A DNA stretch of 64,000 nt, from contig JBBSYD010000032.1 in assembly GCA_038045425.1 (NCBI GenBank), positions 36,417 to 100,416 on the forward strand, in the 5' to 3' direction. The notes below the pieces were generated by a model. That model did not search any database. It saw only the letters and a program-made list of their open reading frames with translations, and was not told the DNA's origin. This document shows, in pieces, positions 3,116-61,364 of this stretch; position 1 is the stretch's first letter; each line of letters opens with the position of its first letter. Source of the stretch: Nanobdellota archaeon. GTDB lineage: Archaea; Nanobdellota; Nanobdellia; Pacearchaeales; GW2011-AR1. A program made the translations under genes and the position numbers.

Positions 3116-4477
3116 ATGAAAAAGATTTTAATTTTAAGTTTAGTGTTATTACTTCTTATAAGTGGAGTTAGCGGATATACTATTTCCAAAGAAATGAAGT
3201 CGGAGGTTATTTTGGCAGAGGTTGGAAATCCAGTTGTTTTTGATTTGACTATTAATGGAGGTGCAGGAGATGATTTTGCAGAGGTTTATTCGTTATTAGG
3301 ATTAAGATTTGATCCTCAGGCAACATTTAATCTTCCTGGAAGTATTACTAAAGAAGTTAAGGCATATGCTGGAAAGGATTATTTGAATCATCCTGGAAAT
3401 TATATTGTAGATTACTATGTTAGAGGTTCTTTGGGGCAGGTAATGGATAGTTTGTCATTTAGAGTTGTTTCTTTGAAGGATGCAATTGCAATAATTCCTA
3501 GCAATTTAGGATATGATGATACTATTATAGAATTAAGCGTACAAAATACTCAAAATGCTTATATGAATGACGTAGTGTTGACTTTTGATTCTGAATTTGG
3601 TGTTTCTCAACAGAAGCTTAGTTTGGAACCATTCGGGAAAGCTAATGTAAGTATCCCTGTGGATGCAAGTAAATCTAAGAAATTATCTGCTGGAAGATAT
3701 ATTATTACTGCTTCTATTGCAATGGAAGATGCAAAAGTTAAGGTTGAAGGTGTTGTTAATTATCTTGAGAAAGAAGGAACTTCTATAGTTACTGAAAAAG
3801 ATGGATTTATCATTAGAACAACTAAGATAACTAAGAAAAATGAGGGAAATGTTCCTGTGCAAGATAAAATTGAAATAAGTAAAGACGTATTGTCTAGATT
3901 GTTTACTACTTTTTCCGATTCTTCCGATAAATCTGAAAGAAGCGGATTAGGAGTTAATTATATTTGGACTAAGCCATTGCAACCAGGAGAGTCTTGGGTT
4001 GTTTCTAGCACAACTAATTATACCTTGCCATTCTTCCTATTGCTTTTGATAGTTGTTGTAGCAGTATTGGTAAATCTCTATTCTAAGACTAATGTTGTTG
4101 TAAGTAAGCAAGTTTCATATGTTAAAACTAGAGGAGGAGAATTTGCTTTGAAAGTTAGAATTGGAGTTAAAGCAAGAAGTCATGTTGATAGAATACAGGT
4201 TATTGATAGATTGCCTGGAATGACTAAATTGTATGAGAAGTTTGGAATAAAGCCAGACAAGATTGATCCTATGACTAGAAGAATATTCTGGAATGTGTCT
4301 AGATTGCAAGCGGGAGAAGAAAGAGTGTTCTCTTATATTATTTATTCAACTGTTAATGTAGTTGGAAGATTTGAATTGCCTGCTACAACTGCAATATATG
4401 AAAAGGATGGAAAGACACATGAAGTTTTATCCAATAGAGCATTCTTTATGAGTGAGATGAGTTCGCAGGAAGAATAA
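3116..4477 (+). CDS. secreted or cell-surface protein with signal peptide and C-terminal TM anchor
   Basis: ATG at 3116 gives MKKILILSLVLLLLISGVSG (signal-like). A hydrophobic helix LPFFLLLLIVVVAVLVNLY lies near residue 330, followed by a further domain. Confidence 0.5.
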   Translation: MKKILILSLVLLLLISGVSGYTISKEMKSEVILAEVGNPVVFDLTINGGAGDDFAEVYSLLGLRFDPQATFNLPGSITKEVKAYAGKDYLNHPGNYIVDYYVRGSLGQVMDSLSFRVVSLKDAIAIIPSNLGYDDTIIELSVQNTQNAYMNDVVLTFDSEFGVSQQKLSLEPFGKANVSIPVDASKSKKLSAGRYIITASIAMEDAKVKVEGVVNYLEKEGTSIVTEKDGFIIRTTKITKKNEGNVPVQDKIEISKDVLSRLFTTFSDSSDKSERSGLGVNYIWTKPLQPGESWVVSSTTNYTLPFFLLLLIVVVAVLVNLYSKTNVVVSKQVSYVKTRGGEFALKVRIGVKARSHVDRIQVIDRLPGMTKLYEKFGIKPDKIDPMTRRIFWNVSRLQAGEERVFSYIIYSTVNVVGRFELPATTAIYEKDGKTHEVLSNRAFFMSEMSSQEE

Positions 4478-4524
4478 GATTTTTATTTCGGAATGTTTAT
4501 AAATAATATTAGTCTTTAGATTAT

Positions 4525-5287: not shown

Positions 5288-6094
5288 ATGCATAAAAAGA
5301 GTGAAATAATATTTAGATTAAAAGAGTTAGAAAAGGAATTAGGAAGAAGACCTGTAAAAACAGATAGTCCTTCGCTTTATACCTTGTCAAGAAAATATTT
5401 TGGTACTTGGAATAATATGATGACTGAAGCAGGATATCAATGTAAATTATTTCAAATTCCTGTAACTCCTAAAGAGATTACTTCAGATTTAAGTTATTTT
5501 TTAGGATTAATGTCTACTGATGGGCACATACAAGTAATAAAACAAAGATGGCTGTACCGTGTTATGATGTATACTAGCGAAAAAGAAGAAGTAGAAATGA
5601 TATTAAATATTATTAAAAAGTTGTTTAGTTATACTGCTTCAGTTAGAGCAAGAAAAACAGGATTTTCTAAAAGACCAAATTATGAAATATACATATCTTC
5701 TAAAAAGATTGCATTATTTTTAAATTCGTTAGGAATTCCGATAGGAGCTAAATCCTATAATCTTTTAGTTCCTAAGATGTTCTTTGAGAATAAGCAAGAA
5801 TATTTTTGGGATTATTTAAGGGGAGTCTTTGATGGAGATGGTTCAATTGTTTTTAGTAATAATAATTTTAGCTTTAAAATCTCATCTGGTTCAGTTAGAT
5901 TTCTTGAGGGAATAAATAAGATTCTTATAGAGAAAGGATTTAAGAATTTTAAGATTTCTAAACAAGATGAGTATGTTTGGATTCTAAGAACAAATATAAA
6001 GGAAAATATTAAACAACTATATTCTTGTATTTATAATAATTCTTCGTTTTTTTATCCTCGAAAACAGTTAAAATGGTCTAAGCAGTATATTTAA
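5288..6094 (+). CDS. LAGLIDADG homing endonuclease (double motif) with N-terminal HEAR-like domain
   Basis: LGLMSTDGHI and LRGVFDGDGSI are two LAGLIDADG-type motifs. N-terminal YFGTWNNMMTEAGY resembles the homing-endonuclease-associated repeat. Confidence 0.7.
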   Translation: MHKKSEIIFRLKELEKELGRRPVKTDSPSLYTLSRKYFGTWNNMMTEAGYQCKLFQIPVTPKEITSDLSYFLGLMSTDGHIQVIKQRWLYRVMMYTSEKEEVEMILNIIKKLFSYTASVRARKTGFSKRPNYEIYISSKKIALFLNSLGIPIGAKSYNLLVPKMFFENKQEYFWDYLRGVFDGDGSIVFSNNNFSFKISSGSVRFLEGINKILIEKGFKNFKISKQDEYVWILRTNIKENIKQLYSCIYNNSSFFYPRKQLKWSKQYI

Positions 6095-6111: not shown

Positions 6112-6271
6112 TAATTACATACCCTCCGTAGCTCAATGGCAGAGCGCCCGGCTGTAGTTAATATAACTAGCACAGACTTTCCATATGGAAACAGGATGAA
6201 GTGCGAACAGAGCATTTTCGTTAGAAAATAGCAGAACCCGGGCTACCCAAGTTCGATTCTCGGCGGGGGGA
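6112..6271 (+). tRNA. tRNA-Tyr (anticodon GTA) with an 89-nt intron after position 37 (intron about 6148..6236)
   Basis: Acceptor ccctccg/cgggggg with C1-G72 (archaeal Tyr identity). U8A9, D-arm gctc-aatggca-gagc, anticodon arm cccgg-ctgtag[intron]c-ccggg, T-arm ccaag-ttcgatt-ctcgg (one mismatch), discriminator A. Confidence 0.7.
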
Positions 6272-8267: not shown

Positions 8268-9695
8268 ATGAACAAATCTAAACTTAATGTTTTTATATTT
8301 TTATTTGCACTAATGGGTATTGCAATTGTGTTATCTATGCAATTTGCTGTTGCGTATAATTCGCCTGCAACTGTAAATCTTGGAACTGCAGGTAATTTTG
8401 TTATATTATCAAAGGCAGGAATAACAACTACTGGAACTACGGCTATTGTTGGAAATTTGGGAGTGAGCCCAATTGATAGTACTGCAATGACTGGATTTGG
8501 TTTGATAGCAGATTCTTCTAATAAATTTTCTACCTCTTCTTTGGTAACTGGAAAGATATATGCATCAGATTATACTTCTCCAACTCCATCTGTTATGACT
8601 AGTGCTGTGAGTGATATGGAAACTGCATACACTAATTCTGCTGGAAGAACTTTACCAGATGCTACTGAATTGGGTGCTGGAGATATTAGTGGAATGACTA
8701 TTGCTCCTGGATTGTATAAGTGGGGAACTGGAGTTCATATTGATAATAGAGGCGTTACTCTTTCTGGAAACTCGAATGATGTTTGGATATTCCAAATATC
8801 CCAGGATTTAACGGTGGATAGTGCTGCAATTATAACTCTAACTGGCGGGGCACAGGCAAGGAATGTATTCTGGCAAGTCGGTGGAGGCACAGGAGTTATT
8901 CTTGGAACAACGTCTGTATTTAATGGTAATATCTTAGCAATAGCTGGAATAGTAATGAATACTGGAGCAACATTAAATGGGAGAGCATTGGCACAAACGG
9001 CAGTCACATTGGATGCCAATATGGTTAGAGTACCTTCAAATTTAGTAGAGGTAATAGTTTCTGATGAGAGAAATAACTCTGAAATAAATAATTCTTCAAA
9101 TTCTACTTCTCGTGAAAATTCGAGTTTAGTTAATGATTCTGTAGTTGTAAATAATCAGGAAAGTAATGGTGGTTCATCTTTAAATGATAATGGAATAGGA
9201 CAAGAATTAAGTCAAAGAATAGAAGAGCTAAGAACTGAATTTAGATATGGAAACTTTACAACTTCTCTGGGAGAGTATTTGAATGTTAGAGAAATTGGCG
9301 CGGGGATAAGAGAGTTAAGGGAAAATAATATTTCTGTTAGGACTAGATTAAATTTAACTAAAGTTGGGAATAATGACTCTAAACTAGAAGTTGAATTAAG
9401 CAATGGAAGAAATGCTGAGATAAAAGTAATGCCTTCTGCTGCATCGGAAATTGCGTTAGCAAGACTTAAATTGAAGGTATGTAATGAAACAAATAATTGT
9501 ACAATTGAATTGAAGGAAGTTGGCAAGGGAAATGATACTAGAGTTGCCTATGAAACTCAGGTTGAAAGACATTATAGGATTTTAGGAATATTTTCAGCAA
9601 AAGCGCAGAACAAGATTCAGATTGATGCAGAAACAGGAGATGTTATTAGCGAGAATAAGCCTTGGTGGGCATTTATAAGTTCAAAGCAAGATTAA
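8268..9695 (+). CDS. secreted DUF3494 (ice-binding-like) family protein with Asn/Ser-rich linker and C-terminal domain
   Basis: Signal/TM at the N-terminus. NLGTAGNFVILSKAGITTTGTTAIVGNLGVSPIDSTAMTGFG matches the DUF3494 consensus (LGTAANFAVLAGS...GDLGVSPG..ITGF). Confidence 0.6.
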   Translation: MNKSKLNVFIFLFALMGIAIVLSMQFAVAYNSPATVNLGTAGNFVILSKAGITTTGTTAIVGNLGVSPIDSTAMTGFGLIADSSNKFSTSSLVTGKIYASDYTSPTPSVMTSAVSDMETAYTNSAGRTLPDATELGAGDISGMTIAPGLYKWGTGVHIDNRGVTLSGNSNDVWIFQISQDLTVDSAAIITLTGGAQARNVFWQVGGGTGVILGTTSVFNGNILAIAGIVMNTGATLNGRALAQTAVTLDANMVRVPSNLVEVIVSDERNNSEINNSSNSTSRENSSLVNDSVVVNNQESNGGSSLNDNGIGQELSQRIEELRTEFRYGNFTTSLGEYLNVREIGAGIRELRENNISVRTRLNLTKVGNNDSKLEVELSNGRNAEIKVMPSAASEIALARLKLKVCNETNNCTIELKEVGKGNDTRVAYETQVERHYRILGIFSAKAQNKIQIDAETGDVISENKPWWAFISSKQD

Positions 9696-10097
9696 AATCT
9701 TAAACCACATTCTAATTCCAACTTTTCCATTTGTTCTGAGGAATTTGCAAATAGGCGAATCATGGGAAATCCTTCTTGATTATCTGAAGTTACGGCTGTG
9801 CCAGCTTGAGCAAGACCATTATCTAAGAAAACGTTGCTTCCAGAAAAAGTATAGTATTTTGTTTCGTCGATTACAGAACCTAAACCTCTTGAAATCGTAG
9901 GAGTTGCAAATAAGTTAATTCTTTGAACCATTGTCTGATATCTTTCAGCAGGTAATTCTTTCAGAACGCCTGAAAGATTTCTAGTATTCGTGATTCCTGT
10001 TGGAGTATAATGCCTTTCTACTAATCCAAGAGCCATGCTCTTTTATCTTTATTTGAGGTTTTTAAATAAATCGGTGAACTAGTTAAGTTTAAGAGAG

Positions 10098-11297
10098 ATG
10101 TGCTTGAATAATATCATGGTAGTATTTGATAAGGGAAGGGCAGTGTTTAAGCATGGGCCTGAAGATTTTATCGTTGAAGAAGTACAATTGGATGGAAAAA
10201 TATCTGAGATTTCTAGTTTGATGTCTGCGTTCGAGAACGCAGTTGTTGATTTTGGTAATTTGAATGTTAATGATAGAAGAGATTTCATTATGTTTGATCT
10301 TGAGAAAATAAATATTGATCATCTTAGCGCGATGAGTGAATTGTCTGAGAAGATTAAAAAACATCCTCATGAGATAGGCTACGGAGGAAGTAAGGATAAG
10401 GTTGCATGGACGTGTCAGAGGATTTCTGTGTTTAATCCTGATATGGAAAAGATAAAAGTATTTTCTCATCCTGGAATAATTCTTAAGAATTTTAGATGGG
10501 GGAAACATAAAATAAAGATTGGAGACTTGAAAGGAAATAGGTTTAGAGTAACTTTAAGAAATTTAGATGGGGCTGCGCTTAAGGTGTTAAGTAGAATAAG
10601 AAATACAGAATATATTCCTAATTTATTTGGAATGCAGAGATTTGGTTCTGTTAGAAATAATAATTTTCAAATAGGAAAATTAATTTTAAAGGGCAAATAT
10701 AAAGAAGCTATTTTTGCCTATCTAACTGGATATGGAGATAAAGAGGGCAAGGAAGTAAGAGATGCAAAGAGAAAATTAAAAGAAGAAAAGAATATTATTT
10801 CTGCAAAGGGTTATTTTCCAAAGGAACTTCATATGGAGCATAGGATAATAGAATATTTAGGTAATAATAAAAATTATTTTCTTGGGGCAATTGGAATGAT
10901 CGGAGAAAAAGTTCTTCTGATTATGTGCCAATCCGTTCAGAGTAGAATATTTAATGAGATTATTGAGAGAGCAATGGAAAGGGGAGTTGCTTCCAATACT
11001 GACTCTCTGGTTATTCCAGGATATGACGTTGGTAATTCGAAGAATAAGTTTGCAGAGATTGAGGAGGAAATTTTGAAAGAAAATGATTTAACTTGGGAGG
11101 ACTTTAGGAATTCGGACATACCTTTTCTAAGCCTAAAGGGGGCGGAGAGAAAAGCATTCCTTAGAGTTAGAGATTTGGAAATAGTTACTGAAGAAGATGA
11201 GATATTTGGGCCTGCAAAGAAAATAGTAATGTCCTTTGTTCTTGATTCTGGAAGCTATGCTACGACTTTCTTGGAATATTTTTTTGAATTGGAATAG
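10098..11297 (+). CDS. truD: tRNA pseudouridine(13) synthase TruD/Pus7
   Basis: PEDFIVEE at the N-terminus and GYGGSKDKVAWTCQRISV (GxKD catalytic Asp motif) are typical of TruD. Confidence 0.7.
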   Translation: MCLNNIMVVFDKGRAVFKHGPEDFIVEEVQLDGKISEISSLMSAFENAVVDFGNLNVNDRRDFIMFDLEKINIDHLSAMSELSEKIKKHPHEIGYGGSKDKVAWTCQRISVFNPDMEKIKVFSHPGIILKNFRWGKHKIKIGDLKGNRFRVTLRNLDGAALKVLSRIRNTEYIPNLFGMQRFGSVRNNNFQIGKLILKGKYKEAIFAYLTGYGDKEGKEVRDAKRKLKEEKNIISAKGYFPKELHMEHRIIEYLGNNKNYFLGAIGMIGEKVLLIMCQSVQSRIFNEIIERAMERGVASNTDSLVIPGYDVGNSKNKFAEIEEEILKENDLTWEDFRNSDIPFLSLKGAERKAFLRVRDLEIVTEEDEIFGPAKKIVMSFVLDSGSYATTFLEYFFELE

Positions 11298-37654: not shown

Positions 37655-38887
37655 TTATATCTTTGCTTCCATCTCAACAATAAAGTCAGGTTTAATTCCT
37701 CTACAAAACATTTCCATAATTACACAGCAGATATTATGGCAAATTACTTTACATAAAACCTCATTTACTTGAGCGTTCCATTTCTTAGAACGAACAGAAT
37801 CGCCAAACTTAGATTTTATCATATACACCGAGGTCTCCGCGTTTGACCTCTGGTGATATGATTGTAAAAATTCCTCATTGTGTAAAGCAAAATAATGATA
37901 AAGTCTTTTCCAGATTCCACCTTTTCGACTTGGAGTAGAATTTATCTTAAATGGAATAAATGCCTTAGTTCCACTATTTTCTATTAACTCTAAATTATCC
38001 CTTGATAAGTAGGCTTTATCCGCACTTAATTCTTGCATATCAAAGAACTCTTTAGCTGTTTGATATAATTGTTTAAGCTGTGGGCAGTCATTATCAAATT
38101 CAGAAGTTATCTTAACGCTGGTAATTCCATTTGTAATTGTTCCAGTAATGAAATGACATTTAACCCATTTTCTTGAACTTATGGCTTTTCCATGCTTGAA
38201 TGAATACCATCTTTGAAAATTAGAAGTTCCAAATCCCGTGCTGTCTATGGCAAATTTCCTATCAATCTCTTTTAGAGGCAAGGCAGTGATTGTTACTAAT
38301 TGGCTAAGTAAATCGGTTAATTCTTCTTTATTGAAATAATCTGACATAGAACTTCTTGGTGTGATACTTTCTATGAAGTTACTTGATTTTGCCTGTTCCA
38401 TATCTGACGTGAATCTTCTACTTGAAAAAGTGGAATAAACTTTGAAAATCATAGAATAAATAGTATCTCTCAAAGAATTTTTAGGTTTACCAAAAGTATA
38501 AGGTCTCTCTTGTATTTTGCTTGTTAAGTCTGCTAGGAGCTTCATAAACAACTCTTTCTCTTTCGTTTGAGCTAGATTATAGTTATGCCAATCTTGAGCG
38601 TAGGTGACCTTCTTAGTAGCGGTTATAGTCACATTACCTTGCTTGTCTACTTCGTGAGTTACTATAAACTCAACTGCCCAAATATGTTTACACTTACATC
38701 CTCTCTCTTTATGGTCTTTGCAATTACATGAAGTATTATCTCCTCTGCTCTTAACAAAGTAAAATCCTGCTCCAGACTGGCTTGGAACTTTCCATCTACC
38801 TTTTTCATCTTGAACTATTCTTGAAGTCTGAGCTATTACTAAGCCTCTTTGTTTTCTTACTTCGATTGGATTATATTGTGTTTCCAT
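37655..38887 (-). CDS. DDE transposase (IS4/IS5-like DDE_Tnp_1) with N-terminal SWIM zinc finger
   Basis: CNCKDHKERGCKCKHIW is a SWIM finger (CxCx(n)CxH). The DDE candidates are AIDSTGF, LSADKAY and RSNAETSVYMIKSKFG. Confidence 0.7.
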   Translation of the reverse strand: METQYNPIEVRKQRGLVIAQTSRIVQDEKGRWKVPSQSGAGFYFVKSRGDNTSCNCKDHKERGCKCKHIWAVEFIVTHEVDKQGNVTITATKKVTYAQDWHNYNLAQTKEKELFMKLLADLTSKIQERPYTFGKPKNSLRDTIYSMIFKVYSTFSSRRFTSDMEQAKSSNFIESITPRSSMSDYFNKEELTDLLSQLVTITALPLKEIDRKFAIDSTGFGTSNFQRWYSFKHGKAISSRKWVKCHFITGTITNGITSVKITSEFDNDCPQLKQLYQTAKEFFDMQELSADKAYLSRDNLELIENSGTKAFIPFKINSTPSRKGGIWKRLYHYFALHNEEFLQSYHQRSNAETSVYMIKSKFGDSVRSKKWNAQVNEVLCKVICHNICCVIMEMFCRGIKPDFIVEMEAKI

Positions 38888-38999
38888 GTTATATTTAGAT
38901 ACCTAATCTATATAAATCTTTCGGTATCTAAAATCTTACTTGGAAGTAGATAAATTAGACACCTAAAAGTTTATAAATCGTAGATACCTAAAATAATTA

Positions 39000-42633: not shown

Positions 42634-42748
42634 GCGCTAGTAGTTTAGTGGTAAAACGGCTCGTTGCCAACTCTAGGAGTCTAAAGAACTACAATTGTTT
42701 AGACTAGGTAAAAACGAGCAGTCTCGAGTCCGATTCTCGACTTGCGCA
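42634..42748 (+). tRNA. tRNA-Gly (anticodon GCC) with an intron of about 44 nt at or next to the anticodon loop
   Basis: Acceptor gcgctag/cttgcgc (one U-U mismatch), D-arm gttt-agtggta-aaac, anticodon stem gctcg/cgagc separated by about 44 nt, loop ttgccaa, T-arm tcgag-tccgatt-ctcga, discriminator A. Confidence 0.6.
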
Positions 42749-43290
42749 TAAAATTAATTATTGATTTATTAACAATAGAGATTCTATAAATTCAAAACAT
42801 TTTTCTACTGCTACAATACTAAGTGCGATAAATAATCCAAAGGATAAATTTTTGTCTAATCCTCTTATGCCTACTAGATAAGTTAAACCAAAGATTAGTA
42901 TTAATGAAATTAAAAATACCCATAATTTAGCCTCAACTTTAGTTATCTTCATTAAAGGTTAAATAATTTGATTATTATAAGCTTTTGTTTACTAGAATAA
43001 AAAATTATAAATCGCTAAGATTATTATAATTATCATCATTAAAATTCCTAGTTTTTTAAGAAATTGAACAAACTCTCTATCTTCTAGTATAATCCCTTCT
43101 TTATATGAATAAGAACGTTCATATCTCTCTTTTTCTTTGCGTCTTATTTTTTCTGATTTTTTTTGTTTTCTTTTATCTATCTTGATCATTCGCATATAAT
43201 CATTAGCTCCGTAATCGTTGCCCATATATTTCTGAATCCCATTATTTATTTAAATCTGTCTTTTTATAAATAAATTAAGCTAGAGAATAC

Positions 43291-43533
43291 TTATTCTATA
43301 TTCACACGAATTTTAATACCTTCTGCTGATTTTACATAATAGGTTCCTTTATTATGCTTCTTTCCAGTTGATTTTTCTATTTCTTTTTTTGTCCATTTAA
43401 TACTCGGGCTTTCTTCAGGATAAAACATAACTAAAAGTCGGTCTATAAAATCTATGTTTGTAATTCTTTTAACTTTCATTCCTAGATGAATTAAACCATC
43501 TTCGCCAACAAAGCAACCATTATACTCAGCCAT
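43291..43533 (-). CDS. hypothetical protein
   Basis: 80-aa ORF. Confidence 0.3.
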   Translation of the reverse strand: MAEYNGCFVGEDGLIHLGMKVKRITNIDFIDRLLVMFYPEESPSIKWTKKEIEKSTGKKHNKGTYYVKSAEGIKIRVNIE

Positions 43534-44299
43534 AATAATGTACTTTTTAGTAACTTATATTACTTTCTATATTTATAAAAAGATAGTAGGAATAATTAAA
43601 AACAATGCATTCTCTTAAGATATGTGACTTTTCAGTTTTTTATTAATAAAATTCAAAGAACCATTGAAATTCTGTGTATCATTAAAGATAATCGCTCTCA
43701 TTTTTAAAGGAGGGAGAGATATCCAGTAAAGGAACACCTCTCCCTGTTATTCTATTAAGATTTATAGGATAAACTTATATATAAATATTTGTTTGGAAAG
43801 ATAATGTGCACTAATCTTGTTACTAATACTACTGCTATTTGACATTTTTGTTAAATTGATTTGCAATCATTAAAACCATAAAACAGGTATAAAAAATGAT
43901 TAAATCCTATTTGTTGCTCTTAAATACTTTCTTGCATTTTCCTCAAAATTGTCTCCAAATAGTTTTCTGAATATTTCATTAGTCGCTTTCAATTGAGATT
44001 CTATTAGTATCCTTTGTTGTTCAAACAAGGACTTATCTAAAAGAAGTTTTTCGGCATAAAGTTTCACAAACTCTGAATCTGATATCTCTAAAGTCATGAT
44101 TTATCTAAGAGGAGTTTGTATTTATAACTTTCTAACAAGTCGGGGAGAATGTTTATTAATATGATAAATTATTTGGATACTTAGGAAGATAGTTGCGTAT
44201 TTCTTCTAAGATAAAGAGAATTTGAGCCACAGTAAGCTGAGGAATATTTACTCAAAATGTAATGAATGGGTTTATAAACCGCCTAAAAAGAAAAATTAT

Positions 44300-44668
44300 A
44301 TGACTAAAGCATTACTTGGATTGCATACGAAAGCTATTGCGGTACTTACGGAGGCGTGTCTGCAAAGGAAGGGATATGAAACAGAACAGGTTAAAACTCC
44401 TGTGGAAATGTCAGCGAGAGCAAGAACTGGAGAATATAGTTTGCATATTATGGATTTGAACTTGGGAGTTTCTGGTGCCACAGATATAACTCCTGGAAGA
44501 GAAGTTTATGATTTAGTTAGAGATAGAGTTGGAAGAGGAGAAGCATTATTTTTGGGAATTTCTGGAAGCGTTGAAACTGTAGAATTAGCAGAAAGAGAAA
44601 GAATTCCGGCAATATTAAATACTAACTTATTTAGATGGATAGCTCAATTGCCAATTGTTAAAGCTTAA
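44300..44668 (+). CDS. possible receiver-like (CheY-like) domain protein
   Basis: An Asp in HIMDLNL sits where the receiver phospho-acceptor would be. Weak call. Confidence 0.3.
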   Translation: MTKALLGLHTKAIAVLTEACLQRKGYETEQVKTPVEMSARARTGEYSLHIMDLNLGVSGATDITPGREVYDLVRDRVGRGEALFLGISGSVETVELAERERIPAILNTNLFRWIAQLPIVKA

Positions 44669-44689
44669 AAACTTAAATTTCTGTTTGAA

Positions 44690-44938
44690 TTGATGGGAAG
44701 AAGAAAAACGTTTTTGAAAATACCTGAAGTGGCTGTTATTAAATGCCCTAGTTGTGGAGCTAAGAGTAAAAGAAAAGTGCCTTTGGATGCTTCGCCACAA
44801 TATTTTGATTGTGATAAATGTTCTGCTCACATTCGGACGCCAATTACGGGATGTTGTATAATTTGTGCTTTTACGAATAAAAAATGTGTGCCTAGTTTGA
44901 AAATGGAAGCAATGGCTAAGGGTTTAGAATTAAGGTGA
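44690..44938 (+). CDS. small Cys-rich zinc-finger protein
   Basis: CPSCG...CDKC...GCCIICAF. Confidence 0.4.
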   Translation: MMGRRKTFLKIPEVAVIKCPSCGAKSKRKVPLDASPQYFDCDKCSAHIRTPITGCCIICAFTNKKCVPSLKMEAMAKGLELR

Positions 44939-45514
44939 TGGACCTACTCCTCTGAGTCCTTTGAAATAGAGAGATGCTTCTGGAGTATCAATACCTAGGT
45001 GTGCTAACATCGCATCGAAATCTAATTTTCCGTTTTCAAATAATATAATTTCGGCTTTTCTTTTTAGTTTTTCGTCTAATCTGCCATAATTTTCCTCTAA
45101 ATTCGATAGAGAAAATCTAATAATTCTATGTGCTAGAGAAATGTATTCTTTTGCTCTCATAAAATATGAACCTGGAACGGGTTTAGATAATTCTTCTGTT
45201 ATAGTCCCTACGGTTGCAAGAGTTTCTATACCTTGAACTCTGGAATCTAGAAATCTCTCAGCTATTTCTACTTGTCTTATGGAATTGACTTTTCTAGGGA
45301 AATTATTTCTTAAAATATTAAGATAATAGCGAGTGTTATCCAGTCTTTCTTCTTCAGTAGATAAGGTTTCTAGTTCTCGGCCCAAGATTCTAGCATTTGA
45401 TAGCCAGGAAGAATAATCTTGTTTGCTTGACAAGGGATTTAATTTACTTGCAAGCCTTGCTCTGGTGTTCAATACTATTTGAAAAAAATGTGAATGGGGG
45501 GTGGAGGTTGCCAT
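44930..45514 (-). CDS. hypothetical protein
   Basis: 194-aa ORF. Confidence 0.4.
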   Translation of the reverse strand: MATSTPHSHFFQIVLNTRARLASKLNPLSSKQDYSSWLSNARILGRELETLSTEEERLDNTRYYLNILRNNFPRKVNSIRQVEIAERFLDSRVQGIETLATVGTITEELSKPVPGSYFMRAKEYISLAHRIIRFSLSNLEENYGRLDEKLKRKAEIILFENGKLDFDAMLAHLGIDTPEASLYFKGLRGVGPSP

Positions 45515-45565
45515 GTGTTTTTAGAAAAGGGCAAGGTTTAAAAGATTATTGTTTCAAGAGATTTT

Positions 45566-45796
45566 ATGGGTTTAATTAAGGTTGCTTTTAATTTTGATGA
45601 ACAATCTTTAGCAGAATTAGAAAAAATTAGACTAAGATATGGTTTGAAAACAGTGGAAGAAGCAATAATTACTTCTTTGAGCGTATATCGTCGAGTTATT
45701 AAAGAATATTTACAAGGATATGAAGAATTAGCTGTGAGAAATCCAAAAACGGGTGAAGAAAGAACATTTACGCCTGAGGCTATACTTTGGGGATAA
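45566..45796 (+). CDS. small hypothetical protein, possibly ribbon-helix-helix
   Basis: 76 aa, MGLIKVAFNFDEQSLAELEKIRLRYGL. Confidence 0.4.
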   Translation: MGLIKVAFNFDEQSLAELEKIRLRYGLKTVEEAIITSLSVYRRVIKEYLQGYEELAVRNPKTGEERTFTPEAILWG

Positions 45797-45864
45797 ATTA
45801 GAGCAATAGTTTCTAGAGATCTGGGCAGAAATGTTTATAAGACTAAAAATAAGCAGATAATTAT

Positions 45865-45935
45865 GGCCCATTAGGCTAATGGTAGACCGGTTCGTTTACA
45901 CCGAACATGCGGAGGTCCGATTCCTCCATGGGCCA
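45865..45935 (+). tRNA. tRNA-Val (anticodon TAC)
   Basis: Acceptor ggcccat/atgggcc (perfect), anticodon arm gttcg-tttacac-cgaac, T-arm ggagg-tccgatt-cctcc, discriminator A. The D-stem is imperfect. Confidence 0.65.
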
Positions 45936-45938
45936 CTT

Positions 45939-46517
45939 TTATTTTTTATAATTGCCTGGAAATATAAAATAGGCTGCAGTTCCATCATTTTTTAGGAAAG
46001 GAACTTTATATCCTTCTGCGTCTCTTTCAACTCTATCCTTTAATGGGAAAGGGAATTCAAAAGGTCTCCTGGGTAAATTACTTTCTGCAAGAGAATCAAG
46101 ATTAAATATTTGACCTACTCCAGTTTTAATAGTTTTCATCCTGAATAAATCTCCTTGTTTTTCATATTTGAATTCTACAAACAAATGAGATTCTGGTGAA
46201 ATGTCTATACCTAACCAATAAACTTGCCCTCGCTTATCCGGTCTTTTTATATCCATAGATAATTCCATTCCAGAAACAATGCCTCGATCATAATCAACTA
46301 CCAAGCAAGTCTTATTTGTTAATATTGGTTGGGCATTTCTTTCTTCAGACTGTCTTTTTAGAAAATTATGAGTAAAGATCCATCTATGTTCAACATCGCT
46401 AAATAGAAGAATGTCTAAACGCGCTTCTCCCTGTGGAAGACTTATCTTGTATTCTCTTGGAATTTTTCTTCTCATGTTATTTTCAGAATTAGGCTTCTGA
46501 GGTTGCCATCGCCTCAA
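45939..46517 (-). CDS. hypothetical protein, sole ORF between tRNA-Val and its partial downstream duplicate
   Basis: 192-aa ORF with no recognisable integrase motifs. Confidence 0.45.
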   Translation of the reverse strand: MRRWQPQKPNSENNMRRKIPREYKISLPQGEARLDILLFSDVEHRWIFTHNFLKRQSEERNAQPILTNKTCLVVDYDRGIVSGMELSMDIKRPDKRGQVYWLGIDISPESHLFVEFKYEKQGDLFRMKTIKTGVGQIFNLDSLAESNLPRRPFEFPFPLKDRVERDAEGYKVPFLKNDGTAAYFIFPGNYKK

Positions 46518-46604
46518 AAATCTATAAATTAGTTCATTTTAAAACCTTTCGAATTTTATCCTCTTGTAGATTACAGAACAAGTATACCCTTTTAGTTAGA
46601 GTCA

Positions 46605-46655
46605 TTTACACCGAATGGTCGGGAGTTCGATTCCTCCATGGGCCACTTTTATTTT
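46605..46655 (+). repeat. att-like partial duplicate of the tRNA-Val(TAC) 3' half plus 3' flank
   Basis: tttacaccgaa and cgattcctccatgggccacttttatttt are identical to 45895..45905 and 45918..45945. The middle 12 nt differ. Confidence 0.65.
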
Positions 46656-46696: not shown

Positions 46697-47584
46697 ATGA
46701 AATTAAATAAAATTATTTCGATATTAGATGAAGAATTTGATGTTGATGAAGTTAATGATGATTGGCATTGGCTTTTTGATGAGATGTTTCTCGAGAAATC
46801 TCTTGGGACGTTTAGAAAGCCTGGGAAAAATACTGGGCTGATGATTGCTAATTCTGACGAGGTTAATAAAATATATACTGCGTTCTCTCCGAGCAGATTT
46901 GTTCTTGAAGAAATAAGAATGCGCGGAATTGTAAATGTTCTTCTTGTGGTAAAACATCCATTTGATTGGGATGGAAGAAGGAATGGGCCGGGATTCTTAT
47001 TTTTTAAGGATGTGGATTATAAATTAATGGAAGGAATGGGAATATCAATATATTCTTTGCATACTCCTCTGGATAAAGATAGAAATGATAAGGTTGTGTC
47101 TACGGCTTATGGATTTGCAAAGAAAATAAAGCTAAAGGTTGAAGAAGAATTTGGAGTTGATGCGAGTAATCCTGATTTGAAAATAGGTTTAATTGGAAAA
47201 GTGCCTGAAAAGAATATTCTTGACTTTGTAGAGAGAATAAATGGAATTTTGGATTATAAAGTTAAATTGAATAAAGTAAATAATGAAGTTGGAAAAGTTG
47301 CAATTGTAACTGGGGGAGGATTTGTTCCAGAAATTGTGGAGCAAGCTAAGGAGAGAGGAGTTAATACTTATATTACTGGGGTAATTACTCCGAATGCTTC
47401 TGAATATGACAAACAAACTTACAAAGAAAAATTTTCTAAGATAAAAAAGCTAGGATTAAACATAATTGGATGTTCTCATTATTTGACTGAAAAATGGGCG
47501 ATGGAATATTCGATACCTTACTTTTCAGATATCTGTAAATCCGAATTTATTGAGGATAAAGAAGCCTGGAACCTTCTTGAATAA
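46697..47584 (+). CDS. Nif3-like dinuclear metal centre protein (DUF34)
   Basis: VAIVTGGGFVPEIVEQAKERGVNTYITGV and LGLNIIGCSHYLTEKWAMEY match the Nif3 C-terminal pattern. Confidence 0.65.
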   Translation: MKLNKIISILDEEFDVDEVNDDWHWLFDEMFLEKSLGTFRKPGKNTGLMIANSDEVNKIYTAFSPSRFVLEEIRMRGIVNVLLVVKHPFDWDGRRNGPGFLFFKDVDYKLMEGMGISIYSLHTPLDKDRNDKVVSTAYGFAKKIKLKVEEEFGVDASNPDLKIGLIGKVPEKNILDFVERINGILDYKVKLNKVNNEVGKVAIVTGGGFVPEIVEQAKERGVNTYITGVITPNASEYDKQTYKEKFSKIKKLGLNIIGCSHYLTEKWAMEYSIPYFSDICKSEFIEDKEAWNLLE

Positions 47585-56023: not shown

Positions 56024-56096
56024 TAGCAGGTGTTGGAATTGAACCAAACATTTCCAGGATGTAATCCTGGCGGGCTAACCATTACCCCAACCTGCC
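56024..56096 (-). tRNA. tRNA, predicted Val (anticodon TAC), with encoded CCA at 56021..56023
   Basis: Reverse complement reads ggcaggt-tg-gggt-aatggtta-gccc-g-ccagg-attacat-cctgg-aaatg-tttgg-ttcaatt-ccaac-acctgct-a-cca. This gives G1-U72 wobble and one T-stem mismatch. Confidence 0.55.
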
Positions 56097-60328: not shown

Positions 60329-60400
60329 GGCTTCATAGTCTAGTGGTAGGACAAATCTTTCACGTGGATTGGGCAGGGGTTCAATTCCCCTTGGGGCCAT
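60329..60400 (+). tRNA. tRNA-Val (anticodon CAC)
   Basis: Acceptor ggcttca/tggggcc (two G-U pairs), anticodon arm aatct-ttcacgt-ggatt, T-arm agggg-ttcaatt-cccct, discriminator A. The D-stem is short. Confidence 0.55.
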
Positions 60401-60470
60401 TTTAGATTAAAACTGGACGTATCAGGAAAAGAGATAATTGATAAGTTTATAGAATTAGTTTATTCAATTT

Positions 60471-60938
60471 TCAAAAAAGAGATCTTAGATTTCCTAAATA
60501 TACCTTATTTTCTTTAGGATTTCTTAAGTCTTCTGTAGGCGCCCAAGTAGCAAATTCTTTCTGATTTAAATTAAATGGTCCTGGAGAAATATTACAGAAA
60601 ATTGAATCTGGTTCTAATGCAAAACATGAATGCCAAATTCCTCCATTAACTAAGTGATAGTTTGTTCTTTCCCTACTTAATATAAATTTTTCATGAAGCT
60701 TTCCTTGTTTATCAAATGTGACTAGTGCAATACTTCCCCTTATGGGCATCCAAACTTCTTCAGCTTGATGTCTGTGTGGTTGTACATAACTTGCTGGTTG
60801 AATAGCATTATATAGTATCTGAAATCCTTTATAATTTTTATCTGTTAGAGGCATCGCAACTCTTCCTCTTTGTGCGGTTCTTGATTTTTCAACTAATGCA
60901 TCTAAATCATTGTTACTTATGTCTAACTGGTTTTTCAT
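60471..60938 (-). CDS. cupin-fold protein (WbuC-like)
   Basis: HRHQAEEVWMPIRGSIALVTFDKQGK is a cupin metal-site pattern. Sole ORF between tRNA-Val(CAC) and its partial duplicate. Confidence 0.45.
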   Translation of the reverse strand: MKNQLDISNNDLDALVEKSRTAQRGRVAMPLTDKNYKGFQILYNAIQPASYVQPHRHQAEEVWMPIRGSIALVTFDKQGKLHEKFILSRERTNYHLVNGGIWHSCFALEPDSIFCNISPGPFNLNQKEFATWAPTEDLRNPKENKVYLGNLRSLF

Positions 60939-61080
60939 ATAAATTGCTACTAAGAGGGGTTTTTAAATTCTTGCTTTTGTTACTTCTTAATAGTTATAAA
61001 GATAAGTTGTATAAAAATTAGATAAATGCAAGTTAGGAAACAATAAAGAGTATAAAAAAAGATTGAAAACTAATTCATAC

Positions 61081-61120
61081 TTTCACGTGAGGAAGGCAAG
61101 TATCTCCCTTGGGGCCATTT
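61081..61120 (+). repeat. att-like partial duplicate of the tRNA-Val(CAC) 3' half plus flank
   Basis: tttcacgtg (same as 60358..60366) and cccttggggccattt (same as 60388..60402) separated by a divergent 16-nt middle. Confidence 0.6.
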
Positions 61121-61364
61121 ATTCTCTTTTTGACCTTAGAGGTCCAAGGTTAGGAATTATAATTTCTCCAGTTATATGGCTCCTATCTTTTCCAACATAA
61201 ATTCTATTGCCCTCTGCAGATTGAGATACTAAAGCAGAATAATTTTCTAGTGCTCTTCGAATTACTTCCGTTCTAGAAGCCGCGCCAGTTGCTTCCAAGA
61301 GTTCAGCTAAACGGGATTCATCAACGCCAGGTAACTCTAAATTAAATCGATATTTTTTGGGCAT
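61119..61364 (-). CDS. ribbon-helix-helix (CopG/Arc-like) DNA-binding protein
   Basis: RFNLELPGVDESRLAELLEATGAASRTEVIRRALENY has the RHH pattern. The stop abuts the att-like repeat. Confidence 0.5.
   Translation of the reverse strand: MPKKYRFNLELPGVDESRLAELLEATGAASRTEVIRRALENYSALVSQSAEGNRIYVGKDRSHITGEIIIPNLGPLRSKRE

Follow-up and report, generated by a model that had tools for sequence, protein, structure and literature searches.

The tRNA-Val(UAC) gene and its partial copy

The locus belongs to an AT-rich groundwater DPANN (Nanoarchaeota) genome that has intron-containing tRNAs and a GAN/RecJ-like gene, and it was analysed as part of a 64-kb stretch of DNA (the window). An intact tRNA-Val(UAC) gene (tRNA1) is followed on the same strand by a partial copy of its 3' part, with a single gene between the two. 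This segment, referred to below as the islet, and its immediate flanks contain the following features.

44930..45796: left flank, with genes for a 194-aa ORFan (minus strand) and for a 76-aa RHH-like protein (plus strand), neither of which is present in the relative L009
45865..45935, plus strand: intact tRNA-Val(UAC), tRNA1, the attL-like end (ARAGORN; Rfam, 58.8 bits)
45892..45945, plus strand: copy 1 of the repeat, from the anticodon stem/loop to the tRNA 3' end, with 10 nt of flank (direct-repeat search)
45918..45945, plus strand: 28-nt perfect block in copy 1 (CGATTCCTCCATGGGCCACTTTTATTTT), a candidate crossover or conversion tract (blastn; unique flank 10-mer)
45939..46475, minus strand: the only gene of the islet (P0001), for a 178-aa all-beta protein (ORF, homologues, AF2 model)
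46476-46530, minus strand: conserved 5' leader of this gene (alignments)
46535..46551, minus strand: predicted BRE/TATA-like promoter of this gene (CGAAAGGTTTTAAAATG, as read on the minus strand; alignments, conserved in L009)
46588..46604, plus strand: possible relic of a tRNA-Val 5' half (CCTTTTAGTTAGAGTCA), with about 11 nt deleted before the anticodon loop (local alignment to the 5' half of the L009 tRNA-Val)
46602..46655, plus strand: copy 2 of the repeat, an attR-like pseudo-tRNA (direct-repeat search, alignments)
46697..47584, plus strand: right flank, a NIF3-family gene outside the islet (Pfam PF01784)

The cloverleaf of tRNA1 has a minimum free energy of -27.5 kcal/mol (z -2.66 against shuffled sequences) and an unusual T loop, UCCGAUU, and a TATA-like TTTATAA lies about 25-30 nt 5' of the gene. 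A single strong direct repeat was found, in agreement with the preliminary description, which had reported that the 3' part of the tRNA and 10 nt of its flank recur about 710 bp downstream: positions 45892-45945 and 46602-46655 are identical at 46 of 54 nt (85%), with a spacing of 710 bp. The eight mismatches (repeat positions 3, 15-18, 22, 23 and 26) give the repeat a mosaic structure, in which a perfect 11-nt block from the anticodon loop is followed by a 12-nt middle with seven mismatches and then by a perfect block of 28 nt; when eight mismatches were placed at random, a perfect run of at least 28 nt arose in only 1.4% of cases.

The 28-nt block spans the T loop, the 3' strand of the acceptor stem and 10 nt beyond the end of the tRNA, and its last 7 nt hold the stop codon and the last codon of the islet gene. 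As the window contains the flank 10-mer CTTTTATTTT at two places only, both directly 3' of a copy of the tRNA end, the identity reaches into non-tRNA DNA, and the match therefore represents duplicated DNA and not mere tRNA conservation. The downstream-copy score of tRNA1 was 28.5, compared to a maximum of 13 in the shuffles; these tests, together with the unique 10-mer, ruled out chance. An assembly artefact was ruled out because three independently assembled contigs from Hainich groundwater 0.1-um filtrates (L004, L005 and L006) show the identical arrangement.

Copy 2 was not recognised as a tRNA by ARAGORN or, at E <= 10, by Rfam, and its predicted folding was at the level of shuffled sequences (z +0.35 and +0.39, compared to -2.66 and -2.44 for real tRNAs). 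Its T stem, GGGAG/CCTCC, carries an A-C mismatch and joins a 5' strand like the AGGAG of the L009 tRNA-Val to the 3' strand CCTCC of tRNA1. The middle of copy 2 (TGGTCGGGAGTT) is likewise closer to the L009 tRNA-Val (TAGTCAGGAGTT) than to tRNA1 (CATGCGGAGGTC). The possible 5'-half relic upstream of copy 2 matches the L009 tRNA-Val with p = 0.027, an uncorrected and marginal value. Another stretch, CTCTTGTAGATTACAG (46562-46577), was also considered as a tRNA 5' relic; this was rejected because the motif that corresponds to it upstream of the gene in the alignment with the relatives L015 and L001 does not adjoin a tRNA-Val there.

The islet gene and its relatives

The preliminary description had placed one ORF, of 192 aa, between the two copies. 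It is indeed the only gene there, but 192 aa require an alternative TTG start at 46517, and the ATG at 46475, which gives 178 aa, was preferred on the evidence of the database homologues and of the conserved promoter. Only the stop and the last codon of the gene fall within the repeat, and it has the same full length as homologues located elsewhere. Eight close homologues were found, and the family comprises 147 clusters at 50% identity, nearly all of about 180 aa. Comparison with four relatives gave dN/dS values of 0.16-0.29, at saturated dS values of 0.8-1.5. On these sequence comparisons, the islet gene is real, conserved and under purifying selection.

The AlphaFold model of the protein, built from a 70-sequence alignment, is all-beta with a pLDDT of 90.6. 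No match to it was detected in Pfam, PHROG, the PDB sequences, Foldseek-PDB or BFVD, and the protein is not a recognisable recombinase. The GC content is like that of the surroundings, no match to the gene or to the 28-nt core was found among viral contigs, and no viral or plasmid relatives of the gene were detected; the gene is not obviously foreign.

The BRE/TATA-like motif at 46535..46551, which on the alignments would act as the promoter, is conserved in L009 and weaker in L015 and L001, and was read by eye in L007; a promoter-like motif, CGAAAGGTTTTAAAAT, is common to L009 and, more loosely, L007. The leader of about 55 nt (GGCGATGGCAACCTCAGAAGCCTAATTCTG...) is shared with L009, L015 and L001 despite the saturation of synonymous sites. 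This stretch, 46476-46551, may be a regulatory element.

Of approximately 13 distinct loci of the family, about half have a tRNA or 5S gene no more than about 150 bp from the family member. In L014, for instance, the homologue (4001-4510) is found 127 nt downstream of the 5S rRNA gene (3759-3874). The family of about 180 aa is widespread, structurally novel and repeatedly adjacent to stable-RNA genes.

The surroundings of the gene were compared between the window and the relatives. In L008 and L009 (67% identity in the gene), a Zn-ribbon gene that abuts the stop of the islet gene, the islet gene itself on the minus strand and the same conserved intergenic region are followed by a full, functional tRNA-Val(UAC) at the exact position of copy 2. 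Between the Zn-ribbon gene and the stop of the islet gene, the window has about 1 kb more than L009, namely the 194-aa ORFan, the 76-aa RHH-like gene and tRNA1. In the spacer between the Zn-ribbon gene and the islet gene of L009, a search for remains of a left tRNA copy gave no significant match (p 0.4-0.8). In L001 (67%), a decayed tRNA-Val, with the 5' part and the anticodon arm, lies past the stop of the gene at the same offset as tRNA1 (p = 0.0007), and a tRNA-Leu is found upstream of the homologue. In L015 (68%), a tRNA-Val(UAC) whose variable loop (CATGC) is the same as that of tRNA1 is found on the promoter side of the gene, at a distance of 1.25 kb.

L007 carries the closest homologue (73%) in another setting, where a tRNA-Tyr is followed by the gene in sense orientation and then by a copy of the 3' end of the same tRNA-Tyr (20/23). 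As the orthologous tRNA-Tyr in the window has neighbours other than those in L007, the location of the islet gene is not fixed.

An empty site was defined as tRNA1 followed directly by GTTTTAGTTC... and NIF3, with the junction ...GGAGGTCCGATTCCTCCATGGGCCACTTTTATTTT then GTTTTAGTTCAATT, and the junction of a circle formed by the 710-bp segment as ...GGTCGGGAGTTCGATTCCTCCATGGGCCACTTTTATTTT then TTATAATTGCCTGG. Among the NIF3 relatives (L021-L023, 78-84% identity), NIF3 has other neighbours and no adjoining tRNA-Val. Gene order in this group is very fluid, around NIF3 even at 84% identity.

Two further candidates in the neighbourhood were discarded. The 194-aa gene of the left flank is not a diverged duplicate of the islet gene, to which it has no similarity; it is an ORFan. 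A 16-kb island from copy 2 to VIT1, considered from the synteny with L009, was rejected on its content of housekeeping genes, which include DnaK, GrpE, DnaJ, a DEAD helicase and a polyprenyl synthase.

Partial copies at other tRNA genes

For 11 tRNAs, all those present in the sequences analysed, the last 30 nt together with 12 nt of flank were searched for up to 2.5 kb downstream on the same strand, with 44 controls of four kinds, made of upstream searches, opposite-strand searches and queries with the 5' half in either direction. Such a copy of the 3' end was found for five of the 11 (scores 28.5, 15.5, 15.0, 14.0 and 13.0), whereas the controls reached a maximum of 11.5. One of these copies bounds a second islet of the same architecture, 15 kb from the first.

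60329..61120, plus strand: second islet
60329-60399, plus strand: tRNA-Val(CAC)
60471-60938, minus strand: gene for a 155-aa protein with DUF6016
61080-61120: partial copy of tRNA-Val(CAC), with an anticodon-loop block (10/10), a shortened and diverged middle and a 3'-end block (15/15)

An equivalent of the 5'-half relic was not significant at this partial copy (p 0.32). In relatives, islets with one gene and of about 0.6 kb were found at tRNA-Tyr genes, in L007 (1414-2214, 20/23 copy) and in L002 (1145-1821, 17/19). The four clearest islets measure 586-723 bp and hold one gene apiece, and their cargo genes are mutually unrelated, save for two of the 178-aa family, the islet gene and its L007 homologue. 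Relative to the flanking tRNA, these two genes have opposite orientations, and the repeats around them derive from different tRNAs; for both reasons, one cassette with one fixed att site does not fit. When the 3' parts of tRNAs are duplicated around small inserts in one direction and repeatedly, this is the signature of recombination at tRNA genes.

An integrase was searched for in the Pfam annotation of the islet, the window and 17 kb beyond it (about 81 kb of the contig), and none was detected. The tyrosine recombinase of L001, used as a phmmer query, had no match in the window, and the islet ends carry no int(N) or int(C) fragments, the islet gene being complete and not split.

Several genes in the vicinity of the tRNAs were recorded. 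RHH-like small genes border both islets, at 45566-45796 (plus strand), just upstream of tRNA1, and at 61119-61364 (minus strand), where the gene overlaps the end of the partial tRNA-Val(CAC) copy; both encode an N-terminal ribbon-helix-helix and a C-terminal tail, with weak similarity to each other (29% over 41 aa). The stretch 42758-45800, between the intron-containing tRNA at 42634-42748 and tRNA1, looks like accessory DNA: its genes are all small and have no family match (64, 77, 80, 65, 148, 82, 194 and 76 aa), and one of them is the ORFan. Att-like copies of the tRNA at 42634-42748, which could have bounded this ORFan-rich stretch up to tRNA1, were sought and none was found. About 7 kb to the left of the islet, a DDE_Tnp_1 (IS4/IS5-type) transposase gene (around 37940-38890) lies beside a MazE-like gene. 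At the tRNA-Tyr locus of the window, a gene for a LAGLIDADG/HNH-repeat protein (5288-6094) is found immediately upstream of an intron-containing tRNA-Tyr (6122-6271), whose intron is conserved with L007. The Woesearchaeota MAG contig L001, which has an intron-containing tRNA and archaeal-type genes, also carries a gene with sigma-70 regions 2, 3 and 4 (8740-10182), which is either a transferred bacterial gene or a sign of a binning or assembly problem.

Origin of the islet

We give an even chance to the reading in which the region is a recombination (insertion) scar at the 3' part of the tRNA-Val(UAC) gene, with an att-like footprint. A small DNA would have carried one gene with its own promoter and a tRNA-Val-derived sequence, and would have recombined with the chromosomal tRNA-Val within a terminal stretch of ~28 bp that starts at the T loop and reaches 10 nt beyond the tRNA gene. 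The left product would be a working tRNA (attL-like), and the right product a hybrid, non-functional tRNA-like arm (attR-like) that joins a "foreign" stretch from the anticodon to the T loop to the shared 3' block, and that would then be free to decay. Lacking a recombinase, the islet would now either be fixed or be movable only by an enzyme acting in trans or by homologous recombination between the repeats. The repeat with its mosaic structure, the non-functional state of copy 2, the intact and selected gene and the recurrence at other tRNAs are seen in the sequences, whereas we infer that an insertion took place, the position of the crossover and the means of catalysis. A crossover in the 3' block fits because the block is perfect beside a diverged middle and because the T stem of copy 2 is hybrid, as expected for a hybrid site; mosaic identity, rather than uniform decay, also speaks for this reading. 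The insertion scar is favoured because the recurrence is directional and the pattern of conservation fits such a crossover. The similar small size of the four clearest one-gene islets, the unfixed location of the gene and the nearness of family members to tRNA or 5S genes also count in its favour.

Archaeal elements integrated at tRNA genes provide the closest precedent. Partial tRNA genes left by integration are pervasive in archaea (PMC9897764), and PYG1 of Pyrococcus yayanosii measures 21.4 kb and is bounded by 44-bp repeats (PMC9897764, PMC5126054). Like these elements, the islet has an intact tRNA at one end and a non-functional 3' copy in direct repeat, on the same strand, at the other, and its repeat likewise begins within the tRNA and stops shortly beyond it (54 nt in the islet, 44 bp in PYG1). 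The elements, however, measure 9-23 kb and contain an integrase and viral or plasmid genes, whereas the islet has 0.7 kb and one gene, its repeat is a mosaic with a diverged middle, and its cargo is conserved among DPANN MAGs, looks cellular and has no viral or plasmid character.

SSV-type "suicidal" integrases, and pTN3 and pT26-2 of Thermococcales, also have tRNA genes as their targets, where att repeats and fragments of pseudogenes are left behind (PMC7253208, PMC5495485). In the islet, by contrast, there is no int gene, no int(N) or int(C) fragment at the flanks and no tyrosine recombinase detected in 81 kb; nor does an attP lie inside an int ORF, as in SSV-type elements, since the islet gene is complete and shares only its stop and last codon with the repeat. 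Int-pTN3 can recombine related att sites and short homologous segments, and can reactivate integrated relatives in trans (PMC5495485), which is the kind of activity that would be needed to move an islet without integrase.

The preliminary description had seen in the repeat the signature of att-like integration into a tRNA gene. That part stood insofar as the duplication is direct, downstream, flank-including, directional and recurrent; the integrase, the empty site and the viral cargo that would complete such a signature were not found, the cargo is conserved, and L008 and L009 have a full tRNA-Val at the position of copy 2. The statement that no integrase lies between the copies was borne out and extends to about 81 kb of the contig. 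The same search returned no integrase that could act in trans, and no uninterrupted tRNA-Val locus was present among the NIF3 relatives at 78-84% identity; these two results stand against the scar. The region is most likely such a scar, of a kind already known that is here unusually small, integrase-free and recurrent. Partial tRNA copies being the standard footprint of mobile elements, another one alone would be routine, and it is scale and recurrence that differ in this case: recombinase-free one-gene islets of 0.6-0.7 kb, with intact and unrelated cargo, are found at two of the five tRNAs of the window and at two tRNA-Tyr genes of relatives.

An older origin is a live alternative to a simple recent insertion because the relatives show tRNA-Val on both sides of the gene, in differing states of repair. 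Here, two functional tRNA-Val(UAC) paralogues would once have flanked a native gene and decayed differentially, so that the left one was kept in the window, the right one in L009 and neither at the locus in L001. We regard this as a serious possibility, though less probable than the insertion scar. A conversion tract of 28 nt, including the 10 nt of flank, would have passed from left to right, leaving the T and acceptor stems mismatched and killing the right gene, which then suffered a deletion in the D arm; if the flanking pair is old, the perfect 28 nt would need such gene conversion. The full tRNA-Val of L008 and L009 with a homologous intergenic region, which supports positional orthology with copy 2, and the marginal 5'-half relic agree with this history, and on their account copy 2 may be a decayed native gene rather than the arm of an element. 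The decayed tRNA-Val of L001 at the offset of tRNA1 suggests that the flanking pair may predate the lineages compared, whose dS values are saturated. The promoter-side tRNA-Val of L015, the syntenic Zn-ribbon gene and the conservation of the islet gene under selection point in the same direction, and a second intact tRNA-Val(UAC) at 56024-56096 would make the loss of one gene tolerable.

Differential decay leaves the origin of an arrangement of tRNA, one gene and tRNA unexplained, as well as its recurrence at two tRNA-Tyr genes and at tRNA-Val(CAC), where the cargo is unrelated, the spacing is a similar 0.6-0.7 kb and the downstream copy always keeps the 3' end. It also requires conversion tracts with one boundary exactly at the T loop and the other beyond the end of the tRNA, and the lack of a significant left-copy relic in L009 counts against it. 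The islet does resemble tRNA pseudogenes formed by local duplication and gene conversion in its nearby decayed isoacceptor copy, in the one identical tract and in the full tRNA of a relative; it differs from them in that the decay is non-uniform, the 3' end and flank are kept in every case and the pattern is directional across tRNAs.

A broader reading, which takes the insertion scar as one case of many, is speculative and rather improbable at present. DPANN archaea would harbour a class of mini-cassettes, each with a single gene, no integrase and a length of about 0.6-0.7 kb, that are inserted at, and exchanged between, tRNA 3' ends, each bounded by a tRNA and a decayed copy from its anticodon loop to its 3' end, and moved by tRNA-sequence-guided recombination, through an enzyme in trans or tRNA homology. 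This reading rests on a sample of eleven tRNAs. Cassettes without a recombinase that are mobilised in trans are known, among them integron cassettes, Xer-dependent IMEX and pdif modules. These share with the islet a single gene, a size from a few hundred bp to about 1 kb, short bounding sites, the lack of an own recombinase and a varied cargo. The sites of the islet, though, are copies of the 3' end of the target tRNA and neither attC nor dif-like, and the orientation of its cargo is not fixed, so that the likeness is one of analogy only. If the class exists, it would offer these reduced genomes a route of gene flux and be the tRNA-anchored counterpart of the shuffling of integron or pdif cassettes; if the pattern holds genome-wide, tRNA genes would be exchange points for single genes in DPANN archaea, where gene order is remarkably fluid and the means of gene gain are poorly understood.

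It is unlikely that the islet is what remains of a larger virus or plasmid element, once equipped with an integrase and deleted down to one gene between attL and attR. Partial tRNA copies in archaea classically arise through the integration of elements of 9-23 kb (PMC9897764), a gene-dense, streamlined genome favours deletion, and ORFan and RHH genes lie nearby. Random deletion, on the other hand, would not predict four independent islets that all measure 0.59-0.72 kb and hold one intact gene. The cargo also lacks viral or plasmid relatives, its promoter is conserved and looks native, and its neighbours are conserved in relatives.

That copy 2 is itself a functional RNA, be it a second tRNA-Val gene, the 3' half of a split tRNA or part of a tRNA with a giant intron, is scarcely credible even in a DPANN host with intron-containing tRNAs, since the ARAGORN and Rfam results, the folding and a search of the window for an acceptor-type 5' strand (GGYYYRTNAG), whose only fit was that of tRNA1, a gene complete on its own, rule it out; this upholds the preliminary description, in which a second tRNA or split half had already been argued against. 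Split tRNA genes are known from Nanoarchaeum equitans, where Randau et al. reportedly described them in 2005, and copy 2 resembles them as an isolated tRNA 3' portion in a DPANN archaeon. It differs in its broken T stem, in the lack of a cloverleaf, of a complementary leader and of a 5' partner, and in the presence of a complete tRNA gene; moreover, it includes the anticodon, which excludes both a start at position 37/38 and a 3' half of the nanoarchaeal type.

The tRNA-Val genes of the region showed some further peculiarities. Two tRNA-Val(UAC) genes, one tRNA-Val(CAC) gene and two partial copies are concentrated within 15 kb. The second intact tRNA-Val(UAC), at 56024-56096 on the minus strand and 10 kb from tRNA1, is quite different from it and has an encoded CCA and a G1-U72 wobble pair. 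The T loop UCCGAUU is present in two tRNAs of the genome, tRNA1 (45914-45920) and the tRNA at 42634-42748, and places a C at position 55, which elsewhere is near-universally U/pseudouridine, while the crippled copy at 46602-46655 has the canonical UUCGAUU.
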